A stretch of 64,000 nucleotides of DNA from contig NC_089278.1 of the NCBI RefSeq assembly GCF_963678975.1, positions 6,612,531 through 6,676,530 on the forward strand. Reading direction: 5' to 3'. The translations under genes were made by a program, and so were the position numbers. The notes below the pieces were generated by a model that was not told the origin of the DNA, did not search any database, and saw only the letters and a program-made list of their open reading frames with translations. The stretch comes from Dysidea avara (lineage: Eukaryota). This document shows positions 7,821 through 64,000 of the stretch, piece by piece (position 1 is the first letter of the stretch; each line of letters begins with the position of its first letter).

Positions 7821-8871
7821 AGGATAATCTTGTATACTAAACAGAACTCTGCACAACTGGTCAAGACATGGCCAGTGATCAGGATTACACTCCAGTGCCT
7901 ACAACACACTCATTCAACAGATACAGATTGTCTGAAGCCTAACCTTCTCCAAAGCCATTCGGGCTATCGGTAGGTTACCTTGCAACTGTGCAACCTTTGA
8001 CAGCTGTAACCAAGTTGTGAGGTCTGTGCTATCAATACGTGTTGCCTATTGGAAGTGATTATTACTACAACAATAACAGCAATATCCTACTACCTTCAGA
8101 TATGTTTCTATGGCAACTGAGAGATCTCCCTGATCCTTGAAGATGCCAGCAAGATTACGACAAATTGAATATTTCAATTTTGTGGCTGTGGCTGATACAG
8201 TTCCAGAGCTTTCCTATAAAAACATTTACATGAATTCTTGAAATTGGCTGAGTACTCATTTATAGTACTAATTTTATTCAAATGACTTGACACTTTACCT
8301 ATGATCAGCTTTCACAAGTTGTAGAGTCTGCTAGGTTACCTATGCCCACTACATGCATGTACATATCAGAGACAGAAATATCTTTTTCACATTTGTCGTG
8401 CATTTCATCTCAACCAAATTAGAACAAGGGTGGTCTACATTTTCAGTAAGAAGCTCATAAATTAAATGTCTAAAAATCAGGCAGTGTAAATCATTTTTTT
8501 TTTTAAAATCTCTCATTTCTACAACTGCACAATTTGTGCTCAATATGTGTACACGTTTCACTCACTTCTCCCATTAAAAAGGATGATTGTAGCAAGTGTA
8601 AGTAGAGAGCCCTGGCGCCATTTAAATCTCCGTCTCGCTGCAGTTTCAGCGCATCGTGATACTCCTGGAAACATGCTGATTCCTTTAATAGAGTAAACCA
8701 TGTAGTGACAATAACTTCATTTAATTTTTTTTTTAACTCGGGCTTGATGGACTGCCTATACCTACCACCCACAGCACAAAGAAAGGCACGTGCTGGACAA
8801 CTGAACAAGACAAGAGAAAAGTAGAGTAACGCAGCCAGCATGTTATAACTCTGACAAGCGACAATAACCAT
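6967..8871 (-). CDS. CABIN1: Calcineurin-binding protein cabin-1 (CABIN1/Hir3 family, TPR), 5' part of the gene. Exons resolved on the minus strand: 8566-8871 (ATG at 8871), 8094-8213, 7944-8045, 7820-7898, 7695-7727, one or more unresolved exons, then 7131-7176 and 6967-7085. The gene probably continues to lower coordinates.
   Basis: The conceptual translation is collinear with the recalled human CABIN1 N-terminus. Window '…[33 protein letters not shown]…' aligns with human '[32 protein letters not shown]'. '[27 protein letters not shown]' aligns with '[28 protein letters not shown]'. '[60 protein letters not shown]' aligns with '[59 protein letters not shown]'. All junctions have GT-AG and phases are consistent. 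Several donors are GTGAGT, GTAGTA or GTAACC. The (CA)n at 7768-7819 is intronic. Exons below 7695 are only partly resolved. Confidence 0.7.
7768..7819. repeat. (CA)n/(CACG)n microsatellite inside a CABIN1-like intron
   Basis: acacacacgcacacacgcacgcacacacacacacacacacacacacacacc, read directly. Confidence 0.9.
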
Positions 8872-9176
8872 AGCTAAACCACAGATCCTCTATATGATTA
8901 AACTAAATTATAAAGCAATACCTGAGCTTCTTTACTGGTCTTCTTGCTAGACGCTGATGTACCTACAGCATTACTACCACTATCGCAATTTAAAGGAGTT
9001 AATAACATCTTTAGCTGATTCCATAAAATGCACACTATTATTATTCTATCTAAAGCGCTTTATATCAACTTGAAGCGCACCTCTCCTCGTGCTCCATTAT
9101 TATGTCTTTTAGGGTCAGTAATTGGCGACACATTGCATCCGCGAATTATTTGCTATCCAGCAGTAGATCATTACAG

Positions 9177-10080: not shown

Positions 10081-12298
10081 ATGTCACTACAAGTGCTGTG
10101 CATAGACTTGGTGCTTGGGTTAAAATACTTGAAGATTGCTGAGAGTATGTAAATGCATGAGACTTGTTGTATTCAATACATGAGGCTTTGTAGTATAGTG
10201 CAATATAGACTCCTTACACTGTCCACTACTAAGTTAAGGATTATTTTGTTACACAGTACACATGTAGGAGACCAATATCAACAGGATCCATCTTTCATGT
10301 AGAAAAGAAGAAACCAGTCAATACTGTGAGTAATGTATATACCGTCTAATTTTTATAAATTCCTTTTTGTTAGATAATTAATTTTGTACCGCAGCAAGAG
10401 GCATGGGTGGTGGAGCGCTTTGGACGTTACCTACGAACACTTAAGCCAGTAAAGGGATTGTTATAACTATATTAAGATTTTACTTTGTTCTCATAGGGCC
10501 TCAACTTTTTGCTTCCAGTAATTGACAATATCAAATATGTTCAGAATCTTAAAGAAGTAGCCATTGACATCCCCTCACAGTCAGCCATTACTGAAGGTAT
10601 GAGGAGTTCAGTAGGTGATGTTTCTAACTCATGTTGAGTAGATAATGTAACACTTCACTTGGACGGTGTGCTCTATATGAGAATATATGATCCATATGCT
10701 GTGAGGACACCCCACTGGTGGCTATGGTGTGATGTGATATATTGGTAGGCTTCATATGGAGTTGAGGATGCTGAGTTTGCTGTAGTTCAACTAGCACAGA
10801 CCACCATGAGGTCTGAACTAGGTGTGTATGTGTGTTGCGTATGTGTGTGACTAGTAACTATATAAATGCACCTGTAATCAGCTAGCTGCGTGTGCAAAGT
10901 TGCACTATTGTCTCTGTTCTACGATCATACATCAAATAATAGCTATTCAGAAGTCTGGCAACGTAGAATTTTTTACTATATTTAGATAATTTTTTTTATG
11001 TAGGGAAGATAAAATTAGATAGAGTGTTTCAAGAGAGAACAATATTGAATTTCTCCATTGTGGGTAAGTGTATGATGATAAATGTCATCCTCTTGGTGTT
11101 ATCCACGCTATCACACTGTCTAGAATCCATCAACAATGCAGCGGAGGCTTGGGGTGTAAAGTGTATGAGATATGAAATAAGTCAGTAAGAATAATAGTAC
11201 TAGCCTTAATTGTGTATCATTTATCCTTCCTAGAGGACATTCAGTTACCTACCAAAGTCAAGGAAGCAATGCAAATGCAGGTTAGTACCAATGATCAGAT
11301 GGGCTTATGAGATATCAACCTACCAGTGTTATAATGTAAAAATTTATGGTCCACTCCTCGCAAAATTGGGTGTTTCAGATCCAGCTGTCTCATAAGAAAA
11401 TGGAGGGATCTGAAGACATTCTACTTGCTATTGTTTGTGTAGGTAGAAGCAGAGCGAAAGAAGAGAGCTGTTGTATTAGAGTCTGAAGGAACTCGTGAGT
11501 CAGCCATCAACAAAGCTGAGGGGTACAAGCAAAGCAAGATTTTAGCATCAGAAGCTAAAAAAGTTGAACAAATCAACACAGCCAAAGGTTACTACATAAT
11601 ACAATGACACAACACTCATTTGCCTGCAGGTGCTGCTATTGCAACCATCGCTAAGGCTGAAGCACGTGCCAAAGCTCTCAGAGTAGTAGGAGAAGTAATT
11701 GGTGGAAAGGTTTGTATATATATAATATTTCCATGACTACCTAAAAAAAACTGTTGCTCTATGCAGAATGGCTCCCAGGCTGCCTCACTGACTGTAGCAG
11801 AACAGGTAAGGGGCAACACTATATGATGTATTATACAGTAGTATACTTCTGTTAGTATGTGGATGCATTCAGTAAACTAGCTAAGACCTCCAACACTTTA
11901 ATGTTGCCTGAGAATACAGGAAACATTGCATCAATGGTATCCCAGGTGAGTTCAGATAATGTTGCATCGTAAACTATTTTAAGCTATAGGCCATGGCCAT
12001 TTATGGTCACATGAGCAATAAGACATTGTCACATGAAGATCCACCTCCTGATGATGATGGTGGTGCAAAGATGTATGAATTGGGAGAGAAGGAGATTGAT
12101 GAAACATTGTCATCACTTATGCAAGAAGCAGAGGATGTGCTAACCACACCTGATGCTACGCAACAATTAAGTCAGCATGAAGAGAGCCCCGCCCTCCTCA
12201 CTGCAGAACCAGAGGAAAAGAGCAAAAGTAACGAACACTTCACACTAGCAAACTCACCTACGCGCTATCAAACCTACCGCAAGGATACAGAGGTGTAA
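10081..12298 (+). CDS. STOML2: Stomatin-like protein 2, mitochondrial (SPFH/band-7 family). Resolved exons: 10374-10448, 10497-10596, 10642-10700, 10749-10821, 11004-11063, 11124-11180, 11234-11280, 11443-11587, 11630-11709, 11768-11806, 11856-11945, 11990-12298 (stop TAA at 12296-12298). Tentative 5' exons: 10081-10144 (ATG) and 10285-10325.
   Basis: The spliced translation is collinear with human STOML2. Window 'IINFVPQQEAWVVERFGRYLRTLKP' aligns with human 'VVLFVPQQEAWVVERMGRFHRILEP'. 'GLNFLLPVIDNIKYVQNLKEVAIDIPSQSAITE' aligns with 'GLNILIPVLDRIRYVQSLKEIVINVPEQSAVT'. 'DNVTLHLDGVLYMRIYDPYA' + 'ASYGVEDAEFAVVQLAQTTMRSEL', 'GKIKLDRVFQERTILNFSIV', 'ESINNAAEAWGVKCMRYEI', 'KDIQLPTKVKEAMQMQ', 'VEAERKKRAVVLESEGTRESAINKAEGYKQSKILASEAKKVEQINTAK', 'GAAIATIAKAEARAKALRVVGEVIGGK', 'NGSQAASLTVAEQ', 'YVDAFSKLAKTSNTLMLPENTGNIASMVSQ' and 'AMAIYGHMSNK…' all match successive STOML2 segments. 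All introns are GT-AG. Phase bookkeeping is consistent: about 412 codons with the tentative 5' exons. Introns run 42-60 nt, apart from two of 182 and 162 nt. The 5' end (start codon and presequence) is uncertain. Confidence 0.85.
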
Positions 12299-17796: not shown

Positions 17797-18720
17797 TACA
17801 AGTGATATAACAATGTCACCAAAACCTACTTCACTTCATGATGAACCTGCAATAAAATAAATGTGTTCTTGTTTCTCCTTCATGCGGTCAACAGGTCCTG
17901 ACTAATATTGAGGTCAGTGGATGTAAGTCATTGCACGACACACACACACTCACTCACTCACTCACTCACTCATAGGTTATTGATATAGCATATCTGTAAG
18001 ATGCATGCATATATGAAAATTTTCATCTTTGTATTTACAATGTGGTCATTGTCATTACCGTACTTGTTATCCTATGCATCAGTATGGTATACACAGTCTA
18101 TCAGTTATTCACTCCCTGTGAACATGGTCCAATTGAGCCTACACACACATTCTATCTCATATAACTACAGTATACATTAAACCAATACATACTGAGTTTC
18201 TCTCAAAAGCACTTTTTTTATCATCACCCTTGAGGGGATGATAATCCTCATCACCTAGCACCCTCAAGGGGAGGATATAATCCTAATGTTTATACTCACT
18301 GTAAGCTATGGAGTTTCTGATAGCATCAAAATGCTCTACAGAACAAAACCATTTAATCTGCAGCTGAGATAGAGGAAAAACTGACTGTTTTTTGGATCAC
18401 CTTATAAAATCAATTTTAAAAGTTCACAAAGGTCAATCTGGGATGGCCAAAATGACATTAGCAATTACAAATAAATTTGCCAAGTTTCATGGTATTATTT
18501 AAAAGTGCGTGCATGCACTTAAGTTTCAAAGGTCTTAGCTATTGTATGTTAAAAATAGTGCTAAGAGAAATAACATTTCAGCTAACCAGATGATTAACAA
18601 CGACAGTAAAGGTGTCAAGAGTAGAGATGTGCAGTAAGTTTGACTCCATTGCAGGTTCAGGAAGACTGTACACTTTTATGGTTTCTACAGAGGAATTTAT
18701 GTGGAAACTTTGATTAGAGT
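17797..18720. repeat. Segmental duplication: about 920 bp, roughly 95% identical to 51521-52400, same orientation. Contains a (CA)n/(CTCA)n microsatellite at 17941-17973 and a hairpin CACCCTTGAGGGG…CCCTCAAGGGG.
   Basis: A base-by-base comparison of the two intervals shows long identical runs. Examples: caatgtcaccaaaacctacttcacttca…, tatgaaaattttcatctttgtatttacaatgtggtcatt…, ctgcagctgagatagaggaaaaactgactg…. Confidence 0.85.
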
Positions 18721-18759: not shown

Positions 18760-19333
18760 TATGCATATAAACTCTGACACGTTGAGGAGTTCTTTAGCTG
18801 AACACTAACGGTGGACAATAGTAACACTGTAATATCGGCGGGCCTGAGTGCTTCTCACTTCAATGCCTGTTTCCACTTCAGCATATTCTTCCAACAATTG
18901 AGACAGCTTCTAATAAATCAAGAAAACCAGTGATATCAAGAGAGACATTTTAACCCACAATCAATACCTCTGACTGAGCATCCATATCATAAGGCAGGTC
19001 AGCCTATTGAGGTATTCATATATTTATACCCTAACTAACTATCTAACTAACTTTATTGCCAGCTAGGATGACGGGCTTTAACTGAGGACCTTCAGTACAA
19101 TGTTTGATCAGGGGTAACCAATAGGTAGTGAGCTGTTAGCAACATTACATGGCGGCTGACAAGTATAGCAACCACTAACCTTCTCCATTGCAGCCTCATC
19201 AGTCAGTGAATAAACAACACACACAACATGAGACTGTAAACAAAAAGTAATCACCCAACAATCTACATGTTGGCTACCTTAACAATCTCTTCCATCAATG
19301 CCTCTTCATTCTGTTCTTGACCTAACATAACAA
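18760..19333 (-). pseudogene. Inverted partial duplicate of the Miro/RHOT locus (60225-60795). It carries copies of Miro exons 4-9 and their mini-introns on the minus strand, with no upstream exons, so it is a gene fragment or pseudogene.
   Basis: The reverse complement of 18763-19333 matches 60225-60795 almost base for base. At one end aactctgacacgttgaggagttctttagctg is the reverse complement of cagctaaagaactcctcaacgtgtcagagtt. At the other end ctgttcttgacctaacataac is the reverse complement of gttatgttaggtcaagaacag. Junctions: 18712-18762 carries a short tandem duplication, tatgcatataaactct(aatca/gaca). Confidence 0.85.
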
Positions 19334-19334
19334 G

Positions 19335-19965
19335 CCAGAACATTAGACATATTATACTAGCGCCATGGCAACTATGCATCCTCACGTGACTAAATAATTG
19401 CGCTCGTTAAATCACTGCACGTGAAGAATGCATATTGGATGAACCTAGATTTTGAGCATATGTTATAGTGCGCTTGAAGGCGTGGAGTATATTAAATACT
19501 TTAGGTTTAAGGAAGAAATTCCATCCCTCCTGGAGGAAGACTGAGTGTGGCCCCGACTAGACATTGGGTGACCTGCAGTTCGAATCTTGGATTTTTTTCC
19601 TTACTTTGGCCCCTTTTCTGTTACACCTTTTCAGTCAGTGAGTAAGTTAAGTCATTAGGTCTAAGTCCCTGAAATTGGGTTAGGTAATCCTAAGGCTGCA
19701 GCACATGTTACTGTCAGACCTTCAGTGCTGGTCACTGTAAAGTGCTAATAATAAAAATAATAAAATATTAGAAAACAAAGTGGAGTATATGAGATTTATT
19801 ACCCATCCAAAACAGCCTAAATAGAGTCTCTCCACGCCTCCAAGCACAATATAACATATGCTTAAAATTGAATCGCTATGCGTTCTTCACGTGCAGTGAT
19901 TTAACGAGTGCGATCATTTAGTCACGTGAGGACGCATAGTTGCCATGGCGCTAGTATTATCGTAA
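19335..19965. mobile_element. Foldback-type element with about 145-bp inverted arms (19351-19495 and 19800-19945). The arms contain CACGTGA motifs. The loop carries a nested SINE-like insert.
   Basis: ctagcgccatggcaactatgcatcctcacgtgactaaat…gcgcttgaaggcgtggagtatatt versus its near-perfect reverse complement …gcatagttgccatggcgctag. A solo arm plus the same 3' flank recurs at 36790-37230. Confidence 0.75.
19500..19790 (+). mobile_element. SINE-like element: tRNA-like B-box (AGTTCGAATCT), conserved body, (TAA)n/(AATAAA)-rich tail. Partial copies at 28283-28462 (+) and 29101-29150 (-).
   Basis: The interval …gggtgacctgcagttcgaatcttgg…ccttttctgttacacctttcagtcag…cagaccttcagtgctggtcactgtaaagtgctaataataaaaataataaaat is shared nearly identically with 28295-28460. 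Confidence 0.65.
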
Positions 19966-27006: not shown

Positions 27007-27291
27007 ATAATCATAGTCTCGTGCCCAGACCCCACCCACTGCGTTGAATAGAGTCTGGTGACTTACGCTATGTTTTTGGGCCCGCCGCCATATTGTTTAC
27101 GCATTTGTATCCATAGCTGTAGTCAGCCATTTTCCTAGTTCCAGCCTATCAAATCGCGTTGTACCTGAATCAAGGCGTCCGATTGGTCAGAAAAGAAAAA
27201 TGGCGTAGGGCCCAAAACTCCTGCGAATGTCACCAGACCCTATTCAATGCAGTGGGTGGGGTCTGGGCACGAGACTACTATAATCATGACA
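27007..27291. mobile_element. MITE with about 55-bp terminal inverted repeats (AGTCTCGTGCCCAGACCCCACCCACTGCGTTGAATAGAGTCTGGTGAC) and a 9-10 bp target-site duplication (CTATAATCAT); Mutator-like (MULE-derived)
   Basis: Left flank …aactataatcat|agtctcgtg. Right flank cacgagact|actataatcat|gac. The arms are exact reverse complements. Confidence 0.8.
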
Positions 27292-29516: not shown

Positions 29517-30263
29517 TATTATTATTATTATTTATTACAGGTAATTTATAAGGCTAAACAGCCTGTTACACCTGATCAACAGGTAAAAAAAGTACAAGTA
29601 GACTAATTACATACATTTATACATAGTGTTAGATGAATATTGGTCAATCAATTTCTTAAAATCATCAACTGATGCTGCACATGCTACTTCTTGGGGTAAA
29701 TTATTCCATGGTTCAACAACTCTTCTTGTAAAAAAATATTTCCTGGCATCTGTTCTTGAAAAATATTTAAATAGCTTAAATGTATGACCTCTGGTATGGG
29801 TAATGGGTGAAAAAGTAAAAAAATCAGAATGGTCTATATCATACTTATCATGTAGCATATTGTAGACAGCAATCATGTCACCTCTATAACGTCTATAATG
29901 TAATGATGGCAAGTGAAGTACTTTCAATCGTTCCTCGTAGTCAAGATTTCTTATAGATTTGATCATTCTAGTTGCTTTCCATTGGATTTTTTCTAATTTT
30001 TGGATGTCTGTTTTATAGTGAGGTCCCCAAACCAAGTTACCATATTCTAAAATAGGACGTACTATTGATTTGTATAAACATGTAAATGAATCTACAGAAA
30101 TATCCAAAAAGGTCTGTTTAATAAGGCCAAGAAGTCTATTAGCCTTATTAACCACTGCCGAACACTGACTATGAAACTTGAGATTGCAATCAATCAACAC
30201 CCCCAAATCCTTTTCCTCATTTACCTTAACAATATCCATCCCATCCATCAATGTGCCCTCTGT
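29517..30263 (-). mobile_element. 5'-truncated non-LTR retrotransposon (LINE) 3' fragment with a (TAA)n tail, inserted into copy 1 of the orphan gene. The ORF 29607-30251 encodes the reverse-transcriptase C-terminal / post-RT region.
   Basis: ORF '…LYKSIVRPILEYGNLVWGPHYKTDIQKLEKIQWKATRMI…' is typical of the CR1/RTE/Jockey-type RT C-terminus. The minus-strand 3' end reads …cctgtaataaataataataataataatc. The insertion is absent from the paralogous site at 32760. Confidence 0.8.
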
Positions 30264-31399
30264 GGTAAAAGAACTGAAGTTTGATCTTGATAAGCCATTG
30301 AGGCATGCTTTAGAGCAAGTGTTTAATCATCAAGGTACAGTGGTGCTGACATTTCAAGGTTCATCATATGATCAGGTTGTGTAAAATGAGCTGTTGTACT
30401 TCTATTATGCTTGTACCAATCAACAGGTATCAGAATATGCTGATAATATCATATCTAGCTATAAACCACCAAGAGTAACTAGATCGATGAAATGCCATTT
30501 CACTGATTGTACAGTATGTTTTCTTTTCTTTTTTTAAGTAACCATTAATGTGTTATAACAGCTAGACACAACTGACTCAGTTGAGGAAATCAAAGTAGAG
30601 GTTGTGGAGGTGCTGATTTCAAACATTCCATCTTATGTACGTTGATCATTTGTTGGATGTGTGCAAGTTTTCGTCTACTCAATAGAAAAGAAAACTTAAA
30701 GAAGAATTTGGAAAACGTCAATTGATTCCTAAAATGACTGTGCATGGTCTCTCTGAAGACAACACTACCACCACCTCGCGTGTAGTAGGTGCAGTTACTG
30801 GTGGTGGACAGCAGGTTCTGACAATTGACACACAAGGTAGACCAGTGTTTTTCAAGGATTGTGAGCCAGCTGTCCCTCTTGATATACGAATAATATATAT
30901 CACTAAGATTTGGGTTTTCCAGCCACCAAAGAAACCTGACACTACACTAGTGTGTTGGTCAAACCAATGTATAGAGCTACAAGCAGTCCCAAATGTTTCT
31001 AAGAAATTAAATATTTTCAAACTGTAGGTGAAAGTTGCCACCGTATGTGTGTAGTGTGTATGTACATTGTTGCGTGCGTGTGTGGGGTGGGGGGTGGTTC
31101 AGTGCTTCTAAGTGCTACGCAGTCAGTGCCTCTCTTTGGCAAACTCCAGGCAACAGTATTTGTACTGGCCAAACTGACTATTAGAAGCTTACGAGTTTAG
31201 AGTTTGTGCACTGATGATGTCACTTAGTTCATACCAATCTCGTGCCCCTGCTAAGGTTTTGCAAGCCTTTCAGGGTAACCAACTTAGCTATGCACTTAGA
31301 GAGCAAAAACAGCTGTTTTCATAGCTAATACCTGGCATGTTCGCTCAATGGTGGATGTTACTGGTCCCATTGAAATTGCTGCCCAAAGACCTGGCAATC

Positions 31400-33869: not shown

Positions 33870-36184
33870 CATGATTATTATTATTATTATTACTAGGACC
33901 GCGTCACATACAACCAAGTACATACACCAACGTGACAGCCCTCCTGGTGAGGCTATTAGGTGGTGAAGGCATGATCCCCTCAATATGTCACAGTGGTGAC
34001 AGATAAAACACAATAGTGGCATCGTAACTAAAGGCCACCAGTAGCTAAGTGCCAGTACATCATTGTTGTGGTAATGGCACAGTGATGTGTACACAGTATA
34101 TGTAATTATGTATACAAAATGTACAGGAGAGAACTATGCATTATTGTATGCAGCAATACATTATAGGCAATATCAAATTATTAGCCAATATACAGTAAAG
34201 TATCAACATCAACTAGAACTAAATAAGGTTCATCAGTGGTGAAGCAATGGCACAGTAACGGGTGACACACTATAATTATGCATACACAACTTGCAGGAGA
34301 TAGCTACACAATACCGTAGGAGTATGCAAGCCAGATGAATCAGATAAAAAAAAAGACAGCCAAGCCAGCCAGAACCTAGTAGCTAGCTAGCAAAGCCAGG
34401 TGAAGGCAAAAAAGATTAAGCATGTATTGAATTGCCTGACACCAACACAAAGGACGTTCGCCATGCCAGCTGCACAAGACAAGATTGTTTACATGTATTG
34501 TAAAGAGAGTGGCATGTGTTTTAATGTATTCTTGTATTGTTAATTAACTTTTTATGTGACTGGCAGCTGGCATGGAGACTTGAGACGTTACAAACATAAA
34601 AACTTACTTGTAATCTTCTTGTTTACGTGTATAAAGTGGCCTTTCCCTCTCCTGAGGTCACTTCACGGACATTCGCTAACCTTCTCCTTCGCCCAATCTG
34701 TAAATAAGCAAGGGTGTGGTGCTGGGCGTTATATAGAATTACACGTATGGTCAAGTCATCAGCACGAATGGGCGCAACGATTATACGTTTGTGCCTTCGT
34801 TCACAGGCGAATCGATCCCCGGTTAGTTTACGTCTCTAGGCCTCGTAGTTTTCTCAAACATTAATTATTAATTATTTATTTATTTATGACGTAATTTTAA
34901 CCGCGTTTCGTATTTTTCTTAGTACTTGGTTGTATAATTATTTTTTTTTTTACAAATTAATGACACAAGAAGTACATAATAAACAAAAACAAATTATCTC
35001 AGTTACATATGGGCCTCAGCGACCTGCACAGCAATCGGTGCCTCAGCAATGGGACAGCACAAACTGGACCTGGCACCACGAATGCACATAATTGCAGACC
35101 TCAACAAAGAGAAGCTCAATTTACATCTCAGCCATCCCATCACTATTCCATAGGAAAGACTGTGCTTTGCACTCAAAAGGTTGGCCAATCTCTTATAAAA
35201 CTGAGTAGCAGCATCACCCATTCCACCAGTAGTAGTAAAAATTAAGGGAGTAAATGAGGCATTCTCTACTTCATGAACCCGTTGTTGGTATTCACGTCTC
35301 TTTTCCTTGTCATGACGTCGGTATGCAGAGTGTAGGGGTTGATTTGAGGGTGCACTAGGGTTAAAAATTCTGACATCAAAGTATGACCTCTCAAATCGTC
35401 TTCCCCAAAAACCATTAGCTGCAATGTCAAGCCTTGCGTTATCATCACGATTAGCTGTTTTGTATTGAAGGGTCTCACCAGAAAGAGGCTGAAGGTGGGG
35501 TTCAGTGACAACATTGTTACAGACCTCGGAAAGTAAATTGGTAGTTAGATCACGCACTTCATTATGTCTCAGAGAAGGAAACCCGCCCTTTGGGCAAGAC
35601 AGAGCATGTTCTATGGTAAAAGAGTGACCACAGGCACAGGAAGTAGGGCAGGCAGATGGTAGCCAATGATAGCGAAGCGCAATTGCATCACGAAAAGCAG
35701 TTTTATGAAACACAAAATTATGCGACTTCAATGGAAGACAAGAGAGCCAATTCGATGCACCCTCCTCCTGAGCCAACATGACTGAGGAACGCATGCTAGG
35801 AGGAAGTTCATCGAACAAATGATTGGCAGATTGAAGTTGCTCTTGATGGCTCCTAGAGTGAAACTTGGATCGCAACTGAACCTGTGCATCAAGACAGTCA
35901 CCTAGTTGATGTACCTGAGAGATAATCAAGCCAACGAGACCAGCATTTACTTCTACAGAGCAGGAACGCTGCTGTGACACAACAATCGAAGGATCAAAAA
36001 CACCAAGGCCTCCTAGCCGCACAGGCAAGGCAAATAGCTTTCTCTCAACATCACCAGGGACAGTTCGACCCAATAGACTAGGAAGGAAAACAGATTTAAC
36101 AAAATGCTCAAGAGGAAGGAAAAGGTCTGTAGAACAAGAAGAAACACGAAAAAATAGTTCCATCGGAAAGAGAGACCATGACAA
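33870..36184 (-). mobile_element. 5'-truncated LINE-like retroelement. ORF 35003-36184 (393 aa) carries a CCHC zinc-finger-like motif (CACGHSFTIEHALSCPKGG…RHNEVRD) and a restriction-endonuclease-like PD-(D/E)xK region (ARLDIAANGFW…SYFDVRIFNP). A long 3' region holds an internal tandem repeat of about 190 bp (34040-34330) and ends in a (TAA)n tail at 33872-33895.
   Basis: Motifs were read in the translation. The minus-strand terminus …gtatgtacttggttgtatgtgacgcggtcctagtaataataataataatcatg shares TACTTGGTT-TGTGAC with the SINE 3' end at 20003-20022. No RT domain lies upstream; a MITE at 36311-36758 abuts the ORF start. Whether 33870-35002 is one continuous 3'UTR or includes a separate SINE insertion cannot be settled from the sequence. 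Confidence 0.6.
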
Positions 36185-36310
36185 AAAGTCGCGATTAGTG
36201 AGTTATCCACGAAGGAGACAAGAGTTCATCGAAACTTGTTCCAGTTCCTGAGGTGAATAATTATTGGTTGATTTAGGCGCTTGTTATTAGAGACTTGTTT
36301 ACCCTTTAGG

Positions 36311-42095: not shown

Positions 42096-42169
42096 CACAT
42101 GTGTTTACTTGCGTTACCGTGGTTATTAAGTCACGTGATGTACATTACTCACGTGGTTTAGTCATAGAC

Positions 42170-42350
42170 TATGGTATGGTCTAGTCTCGCGAGGCCAGAC
42201 CGCTTTTTCTCCACCCCACCCAGCACCCTTTCTCCGTCACGGTGCTTATCGATTAGAGATTATAATATTTCGGAGTAGGCGCTTATAATCTCTAATCGAT
42301 AAGCGCCGTGATGGAGAGAAAGTGGTCTGGCCACGCTATGGTCGAGGGTA
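42170..42350. promoter_or_regulatory. Large imperfect palindrome (about 180 bp) centred near 42275, with a perfect 21-bp inverted repeat CTTATCGATTAGAGATTATAA flanking a 17-bp spacer. It lies in the divergent intergenic region between the coiled-coil gene (minus, ATG 42095) and the DUF547 gene (plus, ATG 42381). Two CACGTG E-boxes sit at 42131-42136 and 42151-42156.
   Basis: cttatcgattagagattataatatttcggagtaggcgcttataatctctaatcgataag was read directly. Outer arms: ggccagaccgc…ccgtcacggtg versus cgccgtgatgg…gtggtctggcc. It could also be a foldback transposable-element insertion. Confidence 0.5.
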
Positions 42351-44693: not shown

Positions 44694-44867
44694 AAATTAC
44701 CTTATAGGAAAAAGTATTTGAAAAACCATCAACAACTACTAGTAACTGAACTAGAGTAGCCATTGCCAAGAGTATATAATGGGGAGGTATCAGCAACACA
44801 CAAACTCAGTGGAATACTCTAATCGATGTTAATCTTGTCACGTGATAGCTCGAGGTGTATACGAGAA

Positions 44868-45483: not shown

Positions 45484-46309
45484 CGCATACCTCTTTGCCA
45501 CCTGTCCATCAGTCCTCCTGACCCCCCATGGAGTCTACCCACCAGGCCTGAATAATCCAACTCTAATTACAACACTGTCTATTTAGTCCAGATGAGCAAC
45601 CTCCAGAGAGACAGACAAATCTCTAGGACGATAGTGGGCCTGGATCATTAATAGGCCTGGTGAAAAAATGCAAAGCAGTGTACACACATCCACCCACACC
45701 CACACGTACACAAAAAGCAAAGTCGTCAGCTACTGTATACACAATCATGCCTACCTAGTGAACCAGCACTGGGGCATCTGTGCACTACTGAGATGCTGAG
45801 TTGGTGTAGGCAAAACTTCTGGAGTAGGACTAGATCCTGCAGGATGCTGTACCATGTGTCATGAGTGAAGGTCTGGCCGGTACCCAAAGTTCCAACTGAA
45901 CTTCACCTATTATTCGAGATGGGTATTTGATTCCCAGTAAACACCAAGTACCTATATACAAATGGATGGGCTGCTTTCCCAGTTGACACCAGGTCACCAT
46001 GCAGGTCCCCATTTAACAGCTGGGTACGTACACACGCACGCACGCACGCACACACACAAAGCCCTCAGCTGCCATTGATATATTACCTGGTGAATCACTG
46101 GACCATGGCCAGTCATGAAGTGCTATTGAGTCAGCACAGGTATGTACGTCTCACAGGATTAAGTATGGCCTGTCATCCCACCTGGGCCTCACCTGTTAGG
46201 TGAGACATCGACAGTGGAAATTTGCTTACCCATTTAACACTTGCATGCATGTTTACCATTGGTAGCAGTGGCATAGGATAACTAAACTAGGTTTTCATGT
46301 TGGCTGGCT

Positions 46310-46830
46310 TTGCCACTGTTACTTAACAACAGCAACACAGTGCTAGCCCCATTACTGTTCCTATGCTACATCAACGACATATCTCATGATATCAGATCAA
46401 CAGTGAAGCTATATGCTGATGACATTCTAATTTACAGACCAATACTTACCATTGAAGATTGTGAAACCTTACAAAGTGACTTGGATCGTCTTCAGTCATG
46501 GGCAAATAAATGGAAAATGTGCTTCAATGCTAAAAAGTGTGAGTTTATACGTATATCTAATATTAAGCACCCCATCATCTCTCAGTATACCATCCAAAAC
46601 ACAGATATCCAGTGTGTTCCTCATGTCACGTATCTAGGTGTAACTATAGACCAGCACCTCACCAGGAATCAATTATAACACACTACTAATATCTCAAATA
46701 AAGCCAACTCAATCAGAGGCTTTCTTCAGCAAAACATAAGTTCATGCCCAATAACAGTCAAAGAAGCATACTATAAGACAATGGTAAGACCTATTCTTGA
46801 GCATGCTTGCTATATAGCCAATATCAGATG
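46310..46830 (+). mobile_element. LINE reverse-transcriptase fragment: RT motif YADDILIY, then the post-RT region …AYYKTMVRPILEHACYIAN
   Basis: ORF 46310-46678: …PLLFLCYINDISHDIRSTVKLYADDILIYRPI…LDRLQSWANKWKMCFNAKKCEFIRI…. Continues in a shifted frame to 46830. Paralogous to the RT C-terminus at 29607-30251. Confidence 0.75.
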
Positions 46831-50640: not shown

Positions 50641-51505
50641 CAGGGGCGGATCCAGGGGGGGGGGGCTTTGGGGGCTGAAGCCCCCCCCCCTTCACATTTA
50701 GACTTTACTTGATCAATATGCTAAGTATCATAATGAAATTTTGTCTTAGCATAATTATATGATCACTAATAATACAAATACTCATAAAACCACCTTATAA
50801 ACATCTTTCCAAGGCATTATCAGTGGATTTATGCTAAAGTTTATGCAACAAGGACCCGGATCAGCATTGGAGGTGTACAACGTCGAGATACTCTAATAGA
50901 GCAGTCAGCTAACTACTCTAATAGAACATTTACTGGAAACTTGTAGTTGGTTCTGTTATGGAATTTTTCCAAATCTGCCTGCACCTATACATACAATGAA
51001 GTACATTGGTTTGTTTAAAGGGCTTTATTCATCCACTTGTGTAGTTAATATATATGGCAATACTTAATTCAGGTACACAATTTCCATTGAAAATGCTCTC
51101 AGATTCAATCTTGTATTGTTCGAATTTCAAAATTTTCCACGTTCAACATTATTCTAACATGCACCTATTCAGTGTTGTGCAATTGTGAGAGGGGTGTATC
51201 ATGTACTTGGTTGTCTGTACCTACCCAAACTTTTCCATCAGCAAAATGCTTTAGAGAGCCATACCTATAATCTAAAGGCAGTATATGAAATATCTACAGG
51301 CAGAAAATATTATGAATTTTATGTGGAAATGTCTCCAAATTGCAGTATTTAGCATCTATTTTTCAAAAATTTCCTGGGGGAGCATGCCCCCAGACCCCCC
51401 TAGTTCAGCATGCTGGGAAGTGTGCTTTGCACACCTCTACCCAAGAGATTAGTACCTTGAGTTAGCCCCCCCCCCCCCCCTTTTATAAATCCTAGATCCG
51501 CCCCT
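50641..51505. mobile_element. Element of about 865 bp with terminal inverted repeats CAGGGGCGGATCCAGG and subterminal G10/C10 homopolymer tracts; related terminus at 45305-45345
   Basis: 50641 reads caggggcggatccagggggggggggctttgggggctgaagccccccccc. 51456-51505 reads …gttagcccccccccccccttttataaatcctagatccgcccctg. Confidence 0.7.
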
Positions 51506-51509
51506 GATA

Positions 51510-52400
51510 TAACAATGTCACCAAAACCTACTTCACTTCACGATGAGTCTGCAATAAAATAAATGTGTTCTTGTTTCTCCTTCATGCGGCCAACGTATCA
51601 TTAGGTCCTGACTAATATTGAGGTCAGTGGATTAGGTCATTGCACGAGTGTGTCACACACACACACAACACACACACACACATAGGTTATTGATATAGCA
51701 TATCCGTAAGATGAATGCATATATGAAAATTTTCATCTTTGTATTTACAATGTGGTCATTGCCATTACTGTACTTGTTATCCTATGCATCAGTATGGTTC
51801 TTATCAGTTATTCACTCCCTGTGAACATGGTCCAATTGAACCTACACACACATTCTATCTCATATAGCTACAGTATACATTAAACCAATACATACGGAGT
51901 TTCTCTCAAAAGCACTTTTTAAAATCATCACCCTTGAGGGGATGATAATCCTCATCACCTAGCACCCTCAAGGGGTGGATATAATCTAAGCTATGGAGTT
52001 TCTGATAGCATCAAAATGCTCTACAGAACAAAACCATTTAATCTGCAGCTGAGATAGAGGAAAAACTGACTGTTTTTTTGGATCACCTTATGAAATCAAT
52101 TTTAAAAGTTCACAAAGGTCGATCTGGGATGGTCAAAATGACATTAACAATTACAAATAAACGTGCCAAGTTTCATGGTATTATTTAAAAGTACATGCAT
52201 GCACATAAGTTTCAAAGGTCTTAGCTATTGTATGTTAAAAATAGTACTAAGAGAAATAACATTCCAGCCAACCAGATGATTAACAACGACAGTAAAGGTG
52301 TAGAGATATGCAGTAAGTTTGACTCCATTGCAGGTTCAGGAAAGACTGTACACTTTTATGGTTTCTACAGAGGAATTTATGTGGAAACTTTGATTGCATG
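51510..52400. repeat. Segmental duplication partner of 17785-18720
   Basis: See the 17797-18720 feature. The 75-aa ORF at 52228-52455 lies inside and lacks coding hallmarks. Confidence 0.85.
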
Positions 52401-53275: not shown

Positions 53276-54424
53276 TTAATATACTGGTTCAGTATGTTCA
53301 AATGTCTCAAATGGAGGGGCGGTTAAATTGAGTTCACGTCTAAAACTCTCCATTGGTTGTTCCCAGTGTTTCTCAAAATAGACACTCATGTAGAATTTAC
53401 CATACCAACCATTAGATATTGCCCATGGTAGGAGTTTGTATCGGAACACATCCTTTTGTCTATACAAACGTGACAGAGATGGTTAGTGTTTCTCAACTAT
53501 GGCATACCAACTAACACTGGAGTTAATTTTGCAGGGGCTCCCAGTGCTGCTAACACACACATTGGCAGTCCAGTCTGAATTGCTTCGAACCATTTAATCA
53601 TAATTTCTCCAAGTAACCTGGAGATTATAATAAGGCATGTATTTGTACACCAAACCACATACCCAATTCCCATTCCATTGATGACATGTGCCAGATCATG
53701 TACCTCTCGGTAACGCTGCATCAAATAACCTAGTTCAGTATCGTCCACATATTTCACCTAATGATGTATTTATTGTGTATGCAGTAATGGATGGCCTGAT
53801 TACTATTCCCATACCACACCTTAGCTCTTGCGTCTGGAGTTAACTTCTGCAGGAACAAACAAATAAGAGTCAGTTACAATTGCCAATGACACTTGCATAT
53901 TTGTCCATGAAGTTGATGTAGTGCTTTCCAAAAGTGTCCTCGGGTAATGTCCTTAGGTAATCCAAGTCCACTGTGTTGGTTGTGATACGCGGCTTCTCAC
54001 TAACAATAACCAGCATCCTTAACATTGCATGTATACACAGCATTGAACACCTTAGTATCTCCCTCCCTGTAGGATCTTCTAACATTCGTTTTCTCATACT
54101 CTGAAGTGCAGTGTGTCCTGTAGTCTCTCCAAATACTGCTACCATGTCTGCAAGATAAATAGTGTACCTTTATCAAATAACATACATATGCAGACAAAGC
54201 TACTCACCATCCCTCTTCGTATCTGTCAATGCCATATAACATGACCCAAAGGTCAGTACGAGACGTTGAGACAGTGTGGTAGGCTTGTGGCTGGGGTATA
54301 ATATCCTCTCGCCTGTTTCACTGACGCATGGAGCAAATGGTGCTGTAAGTGGGTCGGCTGCAGCTGTAAGCGTGGAGCAGCAGCGAACTCGAGCAACATT
54401 TAGAAGTCTCAACATTTCCCACAA
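53276..54424 (-). CDS. COQ4: Ubiquinone biosynthesis protein COQ4, mitochondrial. Exons on the minus strand: 54208-54424, 54051-54147, 53891-53999, 53820-53846, 53663-53757, 53512-53617, 53276-53452 (stop TAA). About 275 aa.
   Basis: The translation is collinear with human COQ4. 'DMVAVFGETTGHTALQSMRKRMLEDPTGREIL' matches '[32 protein letters not shown]'. 'SEKPRITTNTVDLDYLRTLPEDTFGKHYINFMDKYAS' matches '[37 protein letters not shown]'. '[123 protein letters not shown]' matches '[59 protein letters not shown]…[41 protein letters not shown]'. Introns are 45-59 nt, with one of 91 nt, and phases are consistent. Donors include GTGAGT, GTGTTC, GTCATT (weak), GTGTGG, GTATGT and GTTGGT. The start is taken at ATG 54424 (MWEMLRLLNVARVRCC…), with an alternative at 54415. 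Confidence 0.88.
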
Positions 54425-54516
54425 TCGAAACTTAAAGTATTAATTTAAAAATCGTCCACGAAATCAGAGCTCGGACGCAGAATTCTCGTTCAAAGGTTAT
54501 CAGTTAGGACGCCTAA

Positions 54517-54569
54517 GTCCCTACCATTAATGACCATTAGGGCCTTAATGGTCATTAATGGGTAGGGAC
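54517..54569. promoter_or_regulatory. 53-bp near-perfect palindrome (GTCCCTACCATTAATGACCATTAGGGCCTTAATGGTCATTAATGGGTAGGGAC), 93-145 bp upstream of the COQ4 start
   Basis: Direct reading. The left half is the reverse complement of the right half apart from one position. Confidence 0.6.
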
Positions 54570-54585
54570 AGATTGAAATCCGCAA

Positions 54586-54603
54586 TGACGTTTACTAACG
54601 TCA
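54586..54603. promoter_or_regulatory. Palindromic TGACGTT-TACT-AACGTCA motif (inverted CRE/ATF-like half-sites), 162 bp upstream of the COQ4 ATG. The same architecture occurs at 59289-59306 upstream of Miro.
   Basis: tgacgtttactaacgtca at 54586-54603; tgacgttagtatacgtca at 59289-59306. Confidence 0.5.
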
Positions 54604-55199
54604 CAAAAGAAAAATAGAACAATGGAGTTTACACAAGCGCTACAATGTTCGCGAATGCGTTCCGGTACTTGAGTGGGGCAGATTTTTCTGTATTTATTTA
54701 ATGAACAAGGACAAAAACATTTTAAATTAAGTTAATAAAGGTTGGCCTCTCGTTTAGCTATACACGGTCCATATTATAGGTATCAAGTTTCTCAGTGTTG
54801 ATTTTACGGCAAGGAGCTCAGTCTGGGTTCAACAATGTGTAGTTGTAGTATAAAGTTGTAAGTAACTATGTGCGTAGTAAATTGTAATTATTATGTCTAA
54901 AAGAACAAAGAAAGAGACACATAGTGTTGGCTATGTTGAAGATCCCAGTTCATACACTGGCTCCAGCATTGCACCCAACTGTTCTATCAATATTAGACTA
55001 TCCAGTGCATGGCATAGCTACTATTGAGGCAATTAACCAAGGCAGTTGCCTCAGTAAAAGTTAGGAAACTATTTGAATGAAGAGAATTCAGTACAGCAAG
55101 AGATCAAGATACTGACTCTAACAGAGCAGTCACCTACGATCAACTACAGAGTAGCTATCGTAATTTCAGGTTTGCCTCACCTTCTAAAGTTTCTTTGCT

Positions 55200-56300
55200 A
55201 TCTACACAGCTAAAAAAAATTAGTGAAGGTCACCACTAATTTCTGATGCTCTTTTAATGCAGTCTGCTACAATCACTACTAATTTTATAGTGACATGCAG
55301 TCACTACCACATATAGTGACATTCACTACAATGTAGTGAGGGTAGCTACAAGAAAGTATATATTGAAGGTCACTAATTAAAATAGTGAAGCAATTTTACA
55401 GTGTATATAAGCCATGGCGCAACAGAGATTGAGTTCTTTCTTTCCCATCAGTTTGGGAAGGACACAACTGCAAGGACTGGTACAGTCAGCAATAATTTTA
55501 AACATCTTCAAAGTAAAAAGAGTCCAGACTCCAAAGCCCTCCACTAGCTACTAAAGGAAAAATAATTAGTTCTTCACAACTGCCAAATTATTGATTTTCA
55601 TCCTTGCATGCATGGCCACCTCTCCTGGATTTCTTCCTCAGCTTCATTGCTATATGCCCATTCACTGTGACTGAACTAATGTCAATGTCTGCAGTATCTA
55701 TACTGCAATCATTGCCAAATAGCTATGCAGATATCATGCATGTACCGACTCAAAAGTCTTACCAGTGGTCAGGTTTCTGCTGATCTGCAGCTTCACTGGT
55801 GCCATGGCATGCAAACCACTACTGTGATTGTTTTGAAAATGTAGTGTCAGAAATGTACTGGTACTGAAATTTAAATTTTTCATTAGCTAACTATAGATAC
55901 CCACAGAAGAAATATTATGAAGTAATTATTGATAATATTAGAGTAGCTGAAAACATCATTGCAGTCACTACCGCGTAGTGAGGGTAGCTACAAGAAAGTA
56001 TAGTGAAGATCACTAATTTAAAAAATTCACTATTATTTTTACAGTGCATATTATATATATATATATATATCTTTAAGCCATATTGCAACAGAGATTGAGT
56101 TCTTTTTTTCCCAACAGTTTGGGAGGGACACAACTACGAGGGCTGGTACAGTGTCAGCAATAATTTTAAACATTTTCAAAGCAAAAAGAGTCCAGACTCC
56201 AAAGCACTCCTCTAGCTACTATAAAGTTCTTCACATCTGCCAAATTATTGAAATTAATGCTTTTCATCCTTGGCCACCTCTCCTCTACCTCAACACATGG
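55200..56300. repeat. Tandem-like duplication with a period of about 690 bp (55215-55640 versus 55930-56300). It is rich in the palindromic motif TAGTGA-N3-TCACTA, which also occurs at 52443 and 52490, and contains a (TA)n tract.
   Basis: gcaacagagattgagttctttctttcccatcagtttgggaaggacacaactgcaaggactggtacag… at 55415 corresponds to gcaacagagattgagttctttttttcccaacagtttgggagggacacaactacgagggctggtacag… at 56085. tagtgaaggtcac(c/t)acta occurs at 55222, 52443 and 52490. Confidence 0.7.
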
Positions 56301-56749
56301 AGCAGAGGATGGCAGGCTGAATAGTGCTGTGTATGGAAACATTGAAATTAGCAGAACAACAATGTTGAAGTTATAACTATACATAACTAAGAATGTTGCA
56401 TTTTGAGTCTAAGCTGTCTAACTCAGCTAGCTAGTTAATGAATAAAATCTGCTCTCCCGCATCTATTTTTAAGATTTTACATGCCCCTCTATAATCTATG
56501 CTTCAACTGAATGCTGTCTGTTGTAACACTTGTGACTGGGATCAAGATCAAATTTAAAGTGTACTGAGTGTAGGCAATCAAACACCTTTGAAGACTAACT
56601 TTTTGGCCTTTCATGCTACAGTTCAGCAGCTGATCAAAACTATGAAATCAAAGTTCTTTTATAGGTGAAATGCATGTGCATGCTCTGCACACCAATATCC
56701 CATAATATACACAAATTCCATAATAAGGCTTTATAGCATATAGAAATAA

Positions 56750-57300
56750 TCATTTCCCCTAGCAACCTGAATTTCCCATTATTTGTAGGTGATAACGTCT
56801 AAAGTAACTTCTCCAAATTTTGAAAGGATAGTATATATATATATGGTCATAAGATATAACCAAGAGTTAATAATATTAACTCTTGATATAACATTTTAAA
56901 ATTTGTGGTTTTCCCATACATAGCTATCGGCTACAGATGCCCCTTCTACGCAATCACAAAAATGAGGTATTTCAATGTATGCAAAAACTACATATATCTC
57001 AATTTTACATAATTTGTAGGTGTGAATGTCAACAATATTCTCTCCAAGTTATAAATGGATAGTGTATATAGCTAGGTCATAATATATGACATTCCTTGAA
57101 TCCCATAATTTGCGTGATTACCGAGAAAGGGCAACTGTTGCCCCTCTCATTGACAATGTATGGGAAAATTGCAACTTCAAAATGTCATATCTCATGACTT
57201 ATATATATATGCTCAGTATCCTTTTAAAACTTGGAGAGGTGACTTAAGACATTGACACCTACAAATAATCTAAAATTTAGGTTGCTAGGGGCAACAGTCG
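56750..57300. mobile_element. Foldback element with about 100-bp inverted arms (56755-56860 and 57170-57290) around a partial third copy (56940-57100)
   Basis: cccctagcaacctgaatttcccattatttgtaggtgataacgtctaaagtaacttctccaaattttgaaagg… matches the reverse complement of …ccttttaaaacttggagaggtgacttaagacattgacacctacaaataatctaaaatttaggttgctagggg. Confidence 0.7.
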
Positions 57301-58062
57301 ATTTTTTCAGTATTATCAAATTTTTCCATTGACATATTGATGTATATGTTGTGACATTTTGATGTGCAGGGCACATGTTAACAATGAAGGCTGATTTTGA
57401 CAATCAAAATTCTTGATCCCAGTTGCAACTGTGTATCTCAACTGGAAGTGTGAAAACAAACATGCCAGTATTGGTGGATGAGTCGACTACTAGATATATG
57501 GCCAAAAAATAGATGCAGGACAGATTCATGTAAGATCTAAATTTTGTAAAGTGGGGGGGACACTAGTAAAAGTGACTGCAATGCAAAGCATGAGCTTTCT
57601 AAGGGGTCTGGAGGCATGGCCTTGAAATTTTGAAAATTTGACATTCTGAGATAAAACTTGGTGGCAATTTTGACTGAAATTTGTTATTAGGTCACCACTG
57701 CAGCTGGACATATGCGGCGGCACTTTGACTGAAAACTCAAATGTATATAGTACTGAGCTAGAAAACAGAATTAGTAGTATAAGGTCTAAAGTACAAACAA
57801 TATAGATACTGCTGGTGTGAGGTGCATGATCATTCATCTACAAAGAATATCTGGTCACATTAACTAGGGTGTGGATAGAGTCAGGAACTCTATTAAGAAT
57901 TGTAGGTAGTCTCTACTCTTGACTGTTTTATTAGAGTATGTGACCACTCAATATATATGTAGGCCACTATTTGGTGATTTTCTGTTTTTCATGAGAAAAT
58001 TCATGAGGGCAGGCGGGTCATTACTATTATCCATAGTAGTAGTATATGCTTGCATGCATGTG

Positions 58063-58400
58063 CAGGGCCGCCCACAGGGGGGGGGCAACTGGGGCATTTT
58101 GCCCCGGGCCCCAGGAGGCCCCATGAAGGGCCCCCTGAATACCTGTTTAAAAGATCGATATACTCTAATAGAGCAGTCAGATCTAAATACTCTAATAGAG
58201 CAGTCACAGTATTCTTCAGAGGAGCAGTGTAGCAAGCTTATAGATAAGGAGATATGGTTGGTGATGGGTAGTTATTGTCATTGCCAGCAGGTTGTGACCT
58301 TTTTTTTTTTTTTTTTGGTGTTCACCTTACAACTTGGGTCAAGGGCCCCACTTTAACTCTTTGCCCTGGGCCCCTTAATTTCTCTGGGCGGCCCTGTGCA
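58063..58400. mobile_element. MITE with terminal inverted repeats CAGGGCCGCCCACAGG / CTCTGGGCGGCCCTG, G/C tracts, a nested TACTCTAATAGA doublet and poly-T (58302-58320); a sister copy of 49090-49375
   Basis: Direct comparison with the 49.1 kb copy. The overlapping ORFs at 57919-58356 are repeat-derived. Confidence 0.7.
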
Positions 58401-59288
58401 TGTGTGTGTGTAGTGCGTGCTTGTGTGTGTGATTGTTCATACTTGCCACAATATAGCTAGATATAGGCTTATTTTCATACCTTAACTCTGTGTAACTGGT
58501 AGTTAGCTAACTTACATATAATGTGGCATTCTAACAACCTGACCGGGGATTCTGGTACCGGTAGTTGTCCTTTGACAGTTCATTGAGTTATACTTGAGCT
58601 TTTAACTTCTTACTTGTAAACACTGTCAGAGTGTTCACTGTATAGCTAAACCTTTCACTTCTCTTGGCTACAATGCCCGAGGTAGCTATGCTACTGTACA
58701 AGTGTAACAATCTTGAAAACTGAACTGCACAATATATAATAGTTATGTACAGCAGTGAAAATACGATACATGCAGGCAATGATGAAAATAGAAAAACATT
58801 AAACAGTGGCCTTTTCATTTCAAAAATATAGAGGGGGAGGGGGCCGCTAACCCATCTAGTTTTCCTTGTACTCCTTCCTGTAATATGTGGATATGGGTAG
58901 GGACAGGATTGTATATATTCACGGTCATAAAATGTTTGAATTATGTCTATGGTTCATTGTATGATGGAGGAATTACAAACAAAATAGCAACACTGAGGAT
59001 GGGGGGCGGGGGGAGAGTGTAAACGCTCAAACTGAAAGATGTCTTTTCTAGCAACATTTGTACAGTCTCGTGCCCTGACCGCTTTTTCCACAGGGGAAGA
59101 GCACCCTTTCTGAAGCTTGTTTCCTGGACGGGCACCCCACTACTAGTTCGATTTAATGCTCACTGGACTAATATCAACTTCAGCCGCTATAAGTGATTTC
59201 TATGAACAGCATTAGTTCGCCTGAGATAATATTGCTGATGAAAGGGCGATAGAATGGATGCATATTCAAGTACCATTATGTCCCATCT

Positions 59289-59306
59289 ATGACGTTAGTA
59301 TACGTC
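59289..59306. promoter_or_regulatory. Palindromic TGACGTT-AGTA-TACGTCA motif 55 bp upstream of the Miro ATG (same architecture as 54586-54603)
   Basis: ctatgacgttagtatacgtcatcgcg, read directly. Confidence 0.5.
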
Positions 59307-59360
59307 ATCGCGATAACAAAACACAGATCCACAATCGATACTGTTTATACTGCTCACGAG

Positions 59361-64000
<4,640 letters not shown>

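Follow-up and report, generated by a model that had tools for sequence, protein, structure and literature searches.

The window analysed here, a 64,000-nucleotide (nt) stretch of the nuclear genome of the demosponge Dysidea avara (contig NC_089278.1, positions 6,612,531 to 6,676,530 of the forward strand), carries towards its right-hand end two genes for mitochondrial proteins that are immediate neighbours, arranged head to head, and each has upstream of it one copy of a 23-nt palindrome-based element that is the subject of this report. On the minus strand lies the gene for mitochondrial ubiquinone biosynthesis protein COQ4 (coding region 53276-54415); its exons are borne by four open reading frames (ORFs; 54200-54415, 53870-54145, 53497-53757, and 53276-53467), the spliced exons match Pfam Coq4 (E 1e-65), and a rough hand-splice of them is 92% identical to D. 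avara COQ4 (XP_065909919). On the plus strand lies the gene for the mitochondrial Rho GTPase Miro (59361-64000), which has many short exons and continues beyond the window end; it was identified by tblastn with human RHOT1 and by protein search. The COQ4 start codon (ATG 54415, minus strand) and that of Miro (ATG 59361, plus strand) are separated by 4.9 kb. A contig from the ENA (ERZ25068803 ctg11508l) is 100% identical to window positions 43497-63748.

Copy 1 of the element occupies 54581-54603 on the minus strand and reads TGACGTTAGTAAACGTCATTGCG toward COQ4; copy 2 occupies 59290-59312 on the plus strand (TGACGTTAGTATACGTCATCGCG). Each copy faces its own gene, so that the two have the same orientation relative to the gene that they precede. 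A check of the sequence places an 18-nt core in each, TGACGTTTACTAACGTCA at 54586-54603 and TGACGTTAGTATACGTCA at 59290-59307. Both cores are built from two inverted TGACGT hexamers (four hexamers in the two copies together): the palindromic arms are 7 nt long and enclose a 4-nt centre, AGTA, in copy 1, and are 6 nt long with a 6-nt spacer in copy 2. When the reverse complement of copy 1 is compared with copy 2, 17 of the 18 core positions are identical and the match runs 5 nt further, giving the gene-ward consensus TGACGTTAGTAWACGTCATYGCG with 21 of 23 bases in common. The asymmetric centre AGTAW and the 3′ flank TYGCG point the same way toward the gene in both copies, which share five of six spacer bases and four of five flank bases in that one orientation. 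Of the two positions at which the copies differ, one falls in the flank (TCGCG versus TTGCG) and is a C/T difference at the flanking CpG, a change that is the typical decay of a methylated CpG; all four CpGs of the ACGT cores are intact across the two copies.

Read another way, each core comprises two adjacent ACGT-centred sites, TGACGTTA and WAACGTCA, with the ACGT cores at 18-mer positions 3-6 and 13-16; numbered from T1 to A18, the core centres lie between positions 4/5 and 14/15, a distance of 10 bp, or one helical turn. On its outer side each site has TGAC, the canonical half-site of cAMP response element (CRE)/ATF sequences, and the inner halves are non-canonical (TAAC in one site, and AAAC or ATAC, together AWAC, in the other). 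The CRE half-site TGACG/CGTCA is present in both copies and the full CRE octamer TGACGTCA in neither; within the window the octamer occurs elsewhere, at 25895 and 48993.

The original prediction, made from the sequence alone, had described two 18-bp palindromes of inverted CRE/ATF-type TGACGT half-sites upstream of genes that it named as COQ4 and Miro, and on these points our analysis agrees with it: the gene assignments stand, by the Pfam, tblastn, and protein-search evidence given above, and the palindromes are real and non-random. It gave correct coordinates for the first 18-mer and placed the second at 59289-59306 instead of 59290-59307; the distances to the start codons, given as 162 bp for COQ4 and 55 bp for Miro, measure 170 nt and 53 nt. 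It overlooked the extent of the match beyond the half-sites (21 of 23), the common gene-ward orientation of the copies, and the head-to-head layout of the genes. Its further statement that the architecture is found nowhere else in the window is borne out by the counts. The window has two perfect pairs of inverted TGACGT arms spaced by 2-10 nt, where 0.017 are expected, and in the same scan no excess of sites carrying one or two mismatches; TGACGT-N6-ACGTCA is found in the 64 kb at these two sites only (about 0.02 expected), and ACGT-N6-ACGT twice (0.11 expected). The pattern that had been put forward, TGACGTTNNNNWACGTCA, was matched in none of 100 dinucleotide-preserving shuffles. The lone TGACGT hexamer is not enriched in the window (18 observed, 13.8 expected); the distinctive thing is the architecture, rather than the half-site.

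The likeness between the copies goes further than a shared palindrome. No other copy of the 23-mer is present elsewhere in the 64 kb with up to three mismatches allowed. Local alignment of the COQ4 and Miro upstream regions returns the 23-mer as the sole common block, with a score of 36, compared with 20 ± 2.3 (maximum 29) in 300 shuffles; in 72 pairwise comparisons among nine CpG-island regions the pair is outscored only by exon 1 of two DUF547 paralogues. Identity drops to random right outside the 23-mer on both sides, which is the pattern that a constrained site would be expected to leave. Since the non-palindromic spacer and flank are near-identical, the copies are not independent draws of the loose motif TGACGT-N6-ACGTCA; two independent sites would share spacer and flank to this degree with a probability of about 1e-4 (our own arithmetic). 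The identity of centre AGTAW and flank TYGCG, in one orientation to the gene, leaves two readings: recognition of the 23-mer in full, or descent of one copy from the other.

Two smaller features lie in the same upstream regions. The 14-mer CCACAATCGAWACT, with a DRE-like ATCGA core, occurs at 54419-54432 and 59329-59342 (13 of 14 positions identical), within 35 nt of both start codons; the two occurrences are on the same genomic strand and so have opposite orientations relative to the genes. It was considered as a second shared block and dropped, its alignment score of 23 being inside the shuffle range. Immediately 3′ of copy 2 stands ATCGCGATA.

Both copies are located just upstream of the two mitochondrial-protein genes, as the original prediction had it, and in DNA of promoter-like composition. 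The G+C content of the window is 38.6% and its CpG observed/expected ratio (o/e) 0.34, and comparable CpG depletion has been reported in heavily methylated sponge genomes such as that of Amphimedon (PMC7385117). Copy 1 shares with the COQ4 start a CpG island at 54200-54850 (o/e ~0.9-1.3), a presumed unmethylated promoter, and copy 2 shares with the Miro start a CpG island at 59050-59600 (o/e ~0.9-1.0). CpG islands in a CpG-depleted genome are the usual sign of unmethylated promoters. Sponge transcription starts are known to be CpG-enriched (PMC4773876; PMC7385117). Short islands (o/e ~1.0-1.9) are found in the window at ~13.1, 19.7-20.4, 27.0, 33-35, 36.4-37.4, 41.9-42.5, 44.8-45.1, 54.2-54.85, and 59.05-59.6 kb; the overall pattern is vertebrate-like and suggests that the D. 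avara genome may be heavily methylated, with promoters and some young repeats left unmethylated.

Architecture, non-randomness, position, and CpG-island context are direct observations, and they lead us to propose that the 23-mers act on the divergently transcribed COQ4 and Miro genes as promoter-proximal DNA elements, a plausible reading for which we see the case as evenly balanced. In the most likely mechanism, the two ACGT sites would be filled by a pair of bZIP dimers of the CREB/ATF family, or by a heterodimer pair, lying next to each other on one face of the unmethylated DNA a short way upstream of where transcription of each gene begins (the sites are 53 and 170 nt upstream of the start codons, and the transcription starts probably lie downstream of them); the paired occupancy would give COQ4 and Miro a common input. 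Factor identity, double occupancy, and transcriptional effect are all deduced in this scheme, which allows the entire 23-mer to be recognised, or one copy to have derived from the other and then to have been kept by selection while its surroundings diverged. That the inner bases are fixed might be due to heterodimer specificity, or to some other factor that reads the full 23-mer. Suitable proteins exist: sponges encode CREB with a KID domain, ATF2, and ATF6 (PMC4736632), and CREB1 is reported as a driver of mammalian mitochondrial gene programmes (PMC12727542).

Several observations weigh against this proposal. The instances are only two and are adjacent, so that co-regulation is inseparable from shared local history; neither half of the 18-mer is a full CRE octamer, and the inner half-sites TAAC and AWAC match no bZIP half-site known to us. 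One related genomic locus, from Joint Genome Institute (JGI) data, lacks the motif upstream of both COQ4 and Miro, and the exact 18-mer gave only chance-like, mostly prokaryotic matches in JGI metagenomes (both described below). Other CpG-island promoters of the window, at 42.1 kb and 44.84 kb, have TCACGTGA E-boxes instead, which fit the E-box/G-box motif of Amphimedon promoters (PMC4773876); the survey of those promoters lists motifs of the Sp1, E-box/G-box, NRF-1, and KLF types, and neither CRE nor ATF came up when its text was searched (PMC4773876). Other factors compared by eye were set aside: the FOX-type GTAAAC and the Yap-type TTAGTAA are each present in copy 1 only, and none of the Myb, ZNF143, and E4F1 sites fits both copies. 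If functional, the element would offer a concrete cis-regulatory site that can be put to the test in a sponge, and paired bZIP sites at one-helical-turn spacing, a kind known from plant as-1 elements, would couple two mitochondrial-protein genes in an early-branching animal. Sponge promoter grammar is, to our knowledge, barely charted. As it stands, the candidate element rests on two linked instances and is at present unsurprising to specialists.

Other explanations of the pair differ in what they make of the same sequence. Chance resemblance, with neither shared origin nor function, seems exceedingly unlikely. By our own arithmetic about three pairs of random 18-mers differing at no more than one position are expected in 64 kb, which makes similarity by itself a weak argument; but each copy is in addition a palindrome built on the same hexamer (0.017 expected), they have five of six spacer and four of five flank bases in common (the ~1e-4 estimated above for independent sites), and both stand in CpG islands beside adjacent gene starts. 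It is also very unlikely, if somewhat less so, that the element acts as RNA, namely as a 5′ untranslated region (UTR) hairpin (UGACGUU-AGUA-AACGUCA) with the same sense-strand loop in both mRNAs that controls translation or localisation. The copies do fold, at -10.5 and -8.7 kcal/mol, and both genes have AGUA as the centre on the sense strand, but folding is uninformative here, since any palindrome folds, and Rfam matched no family anywhere in the window. Three further observations argue against such a hairpin and are also the grounds on which both sites probably lie upstream of the transcription starts. An ATG at 59289, made of the A that precedes copy 2 and the first bases of the copy, reads in frame and without a stop into Miro, so that transcription of copy 2 would add 24 residues (MTLVYVIAITKHRSTIDTVYTAHE) to the protein. 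The interval from copy 1 to the COQ4 ATG contains three upstream ATGs and a very stable palindrome, and a transcript including copy 1 would have them all in its leader, with a hairpin dominating a fold of -48 kcal/mol. Assembled Miro 5′ UTRs of two probable sponges (Logan transcripts) are 48 and 15 nt long and thus no longer than 48 nt, the Logan Miro matches being transcripts with little or no 5′ UTR. The palindrome upstream of COQ4 is itself near-perfect (54516-54568), with a 38-nt core at 54524-54561 (CCATTAATGACCATTAGGG / CCTTAATGGTCATTAATGG) extended by flanking arms (GTCCCTACC / GGTAGGGAC), and it dominates that fold (z = -7.5); it may be a foldback or miniature inverted-repeat transposable element (MITE) insertion, or a protein-binding site.

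A more substantial alternative, which we consider possible and on the whole unlikely, is that a DNA-transposon-like insertion of ~4.7 kb (54581-59312), with the 23-mers as its terminal inverted repeats, or else an inverted duplication that has them at its ends, split a once compact bidirectional COQ4/Miro promoter, any regulatory role being incidental. The hypothetical insertion body would be the 4.7-kb stretch between the copies (54604-59289), which consists of tandem duplications, inverted repeats, and repeat fragments. Mutually inverted copies bracket this entire repeat-rich intergenic stretch, and a 23-nt repeat with 21 matches and sharp inner and outer edges has the look of terminal inverted repeats. 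Excision of 54581-59312 would leave the two start codons 216 bp apart, a distance comparable with the 260-bp Band_7/Miro bidirectional promoter of the JGI relative; many head-to-head genes of Amphimedon lie within 1 kb of each other (PMC4773876), and MITE-like elements are present in or beside several promoters of the window. On the other side, a target-site duplication is missing (the flanks, GAAATC|CGCAAT and ATCGCG|ATAACA, contain no direct repeat of 2-10 nt), four long interior ORFs that were tested match no Pfam family, and no other copy is found in 64 kb of a repeat-rich region even at three mismatches. It is unusual, too, for terminal inverted repeats to be palindromes in themselves, as this repeat is. 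About two thirds of the CpGs have disappeared from the genome, and the repeat keeps all of those in its ACGT cores, where loss would be the expectation for an old, methylated transposon end. The promoter-element and insertion readings are compatible, in that a duplicated or transposon-borne site can be functional; if the copies are only insertion ends, their interest is local.

Whether the element extends beyond this gene pair is a separate question. The original prediction had suggested a common cis-regulatory element of mitochondrial-function genes in this species; that claim is unsupported, with the two carriers adjacent and a third mitochondrial-protein gene of the window lacking TGACGT nearby, and we regard a regulon of nuclear mitochondrial-protein genes that spans the species or the lineage as improbable. 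Both carriers do encode mitochondrial proteins, but as immediate head-to-head neighbours COQ4 and Miro are not independent observations, and two non-independent instances are all that the regulon has. The third gene, STOML2-like (Band_7 and Band_7_C; 10374-12055, plus strand), serves as an internal control without the element: it has no TGACGT between 6965 and 14228, the positions of the hexamers nearest to it, although the control is imperfect, the first exon of the gene not having been located. Two of the window's three mitochondrial-protein genes therefore carry the motif.

Comparison with other genomes offers both a hint of common control and further counter-evidence. A probably poriferan relative in JGI metagenome 3300047097 (contigs L003-L005) has COQ4, Band_7, and Miro within 5 kb (L003 1045-6203), with Band_7 and Miro sharing the 260-bp bidirectional promoter mentioned above; its Miro is 50% identical to that of D. 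avara and has the intron after exon 1 at the same position. In D. avara the COQ4-STOML2-Miro linkage is spread over ~50 kb. The linkage of these genes in two genomes hints at a small conserved cluster of mitochondrial-protein genes, and at selection for common control. The relative's COQ4 upstream region, however, has two CACGTGAG boxes and its Band_7/Miro promoter two GGCCATTTTG boxes, with the motif in neither, and the Miro locus of Nematostella (L026), which has no COQ4 or Band_7 neighbours, also lacks it. The cross-species conservation that had been proposed as a check on the element is thus not seen at the JGI and Nematostella loci, in a comparison that is a weak test, the species being distant (~50% protein identity). 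The exact 18-mer TGACGTTAGTAWACGTCA, searched for in JGI metagenome contigs, gave 17 matches with flanks unrelated to those of the window copies; their CpG o/e is mostly ~1 and they are mostly prokaryote-like, one lying inside a bacterial NADH dehydrogenase operon. On account of their unrelated flanks and their composition these matches were treated as chance and not as true relatives. We think it doubtful, and quite improbable, that an 18-23 nt oriented, CpG-bearing palindrome constitutes a lineage-specific promoter code for mitochondrial-protein genes in keratose sponges, read by tandem CREB/ATF dimers and kept unmethylated in an otherwise heavily methylated genome, with COQ4 and Miro as the first members to be recognised.

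Among known systems, the element is closest in sequence to CRE/ATF sites and in architecture to the as-1 element of plants and their viruses. With the CRE (TGACGTCA, half-site TGACG, bound by CREB/ATF bZIP proteins) it has in common the TGACGT hexamers, a CpG in the core, and proximity to gene starts in CpG-island DNA, and the factors exist in sponges (PMC4736632). It differs in being without the full octamer and in consisting of two mirror half-CREs 10 bp apart with a fixed non-palindromic centre and 3′ flank, together a 23-nt oriented unit; it is a candidate site known from its sequence alone. The as-1 element contains two TGACG-containing imperfect palindromes and is doubly occupied by two TGA bZIP dimers (PMC9360754). 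The resemblance lies in the two adjacent, ACGT-centred imperfect palindromes, each able to take one bZIP dimer. The as-1 centres are 12 bp apart and its TGACG motifs are in tandem, whereas the spacing here is 10 bp and the arrangement mirrored; shortening of the as-1 spacing by 2 bp is reported to have left binding in vitro unaffected (PMC3354754, citing Krawczyk 2002). The TGA and NPR1 factors of as-1 are plant-specific. Because spacing, orientation, and factors differ, the sponge element is no member of the as-1 family, though it may work like as-1.

Promoter motifs of mitochondrial genes are known from other animals, including the vertebrate NRF-1 site and the palindromic insect NRG element TTAYRTAA. 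E4F1, a regulator of mitochondrial and metabolic genes, has a binding sequence of CRE type (PMC10541018; PMC4583703); the review that compares E4F1 between species covered chordates only (PMC10541018). Like these, the D. avara element is a palindromic, promoter-proximal motif beside mitochondrial-protein genes. The known motifs were defined by genome-wide enrichment, whereas this one is known from a single window; it differs in sequence from the NRF-1 and NRG sites, and one of three mitochondrial genes in the window is without it. It is a demonstrated member of none of these regulon motifs (the NRF-1 site, insect NRG, and E4F1 sites). The terminal inverted repeats of DNA transposons and MITEs resemble it in so far as a 23-nt inverted repeat (21 of 23) surrounds a 4.7-kb repeat-rich segment; they are unlike it in the points already given, namely the missing target-site duplication, the lack of another copy in 64 kb, the palindromic nature of the repeat itself, the core CpGs that have all been kept, and the four interior ORFs without a protein family.

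Elsewhere in the window, the E-boxes TCACGTGA / TCACGTGG are located at 42125-42155 and 44838-44848, just upstream of two tandem paralogous DUF547 genes, both of which start with signal peptides (MALFLTLITVF... and MRYPRIFLVIL...). In the first of these promoters, GTCTCGCGAGG at ~42185 resembles a promoter motif of the TCTCGCGAGA type. A MITE-like family (AGTCTCGYG...CCAGACCGCTTTTTC...CACCCTTTCT) forms an inverted pair at 27014-27094 / 27197-27277 and a long palindrome in the 42.2-kb promoter (42180-42340), and has left a fragment at 59063-59112, ~200 bp upstream of copy 2. Long retroelement-like ORFs (reverse-transcriptase C-terminal regions) are present at 29610-30326 (minus strand), 35006-36202 (minus strand), and 46286-46675 (plus strand); a Pfam search gave no match for the ORF at 35006-36202. 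An ORF at ~8500-8890 (minus strand), which would be head to head with the STOML2-like gene, may resemble the N-terminal TPR region of human calcineurin-binding protein Cabin1. A 588-bp piece of the Miro gene interior that includes three exons (60209-60791) has an inverted duplicate ~41 kb away (18770-19357; 98.5% identity), and the duplicate adjoins a 0.9-kb copy (17803-18715) of 51505-52395 with 90.7% identity; together they appear to be a composite segmental duplication or a pseudogene fragment.

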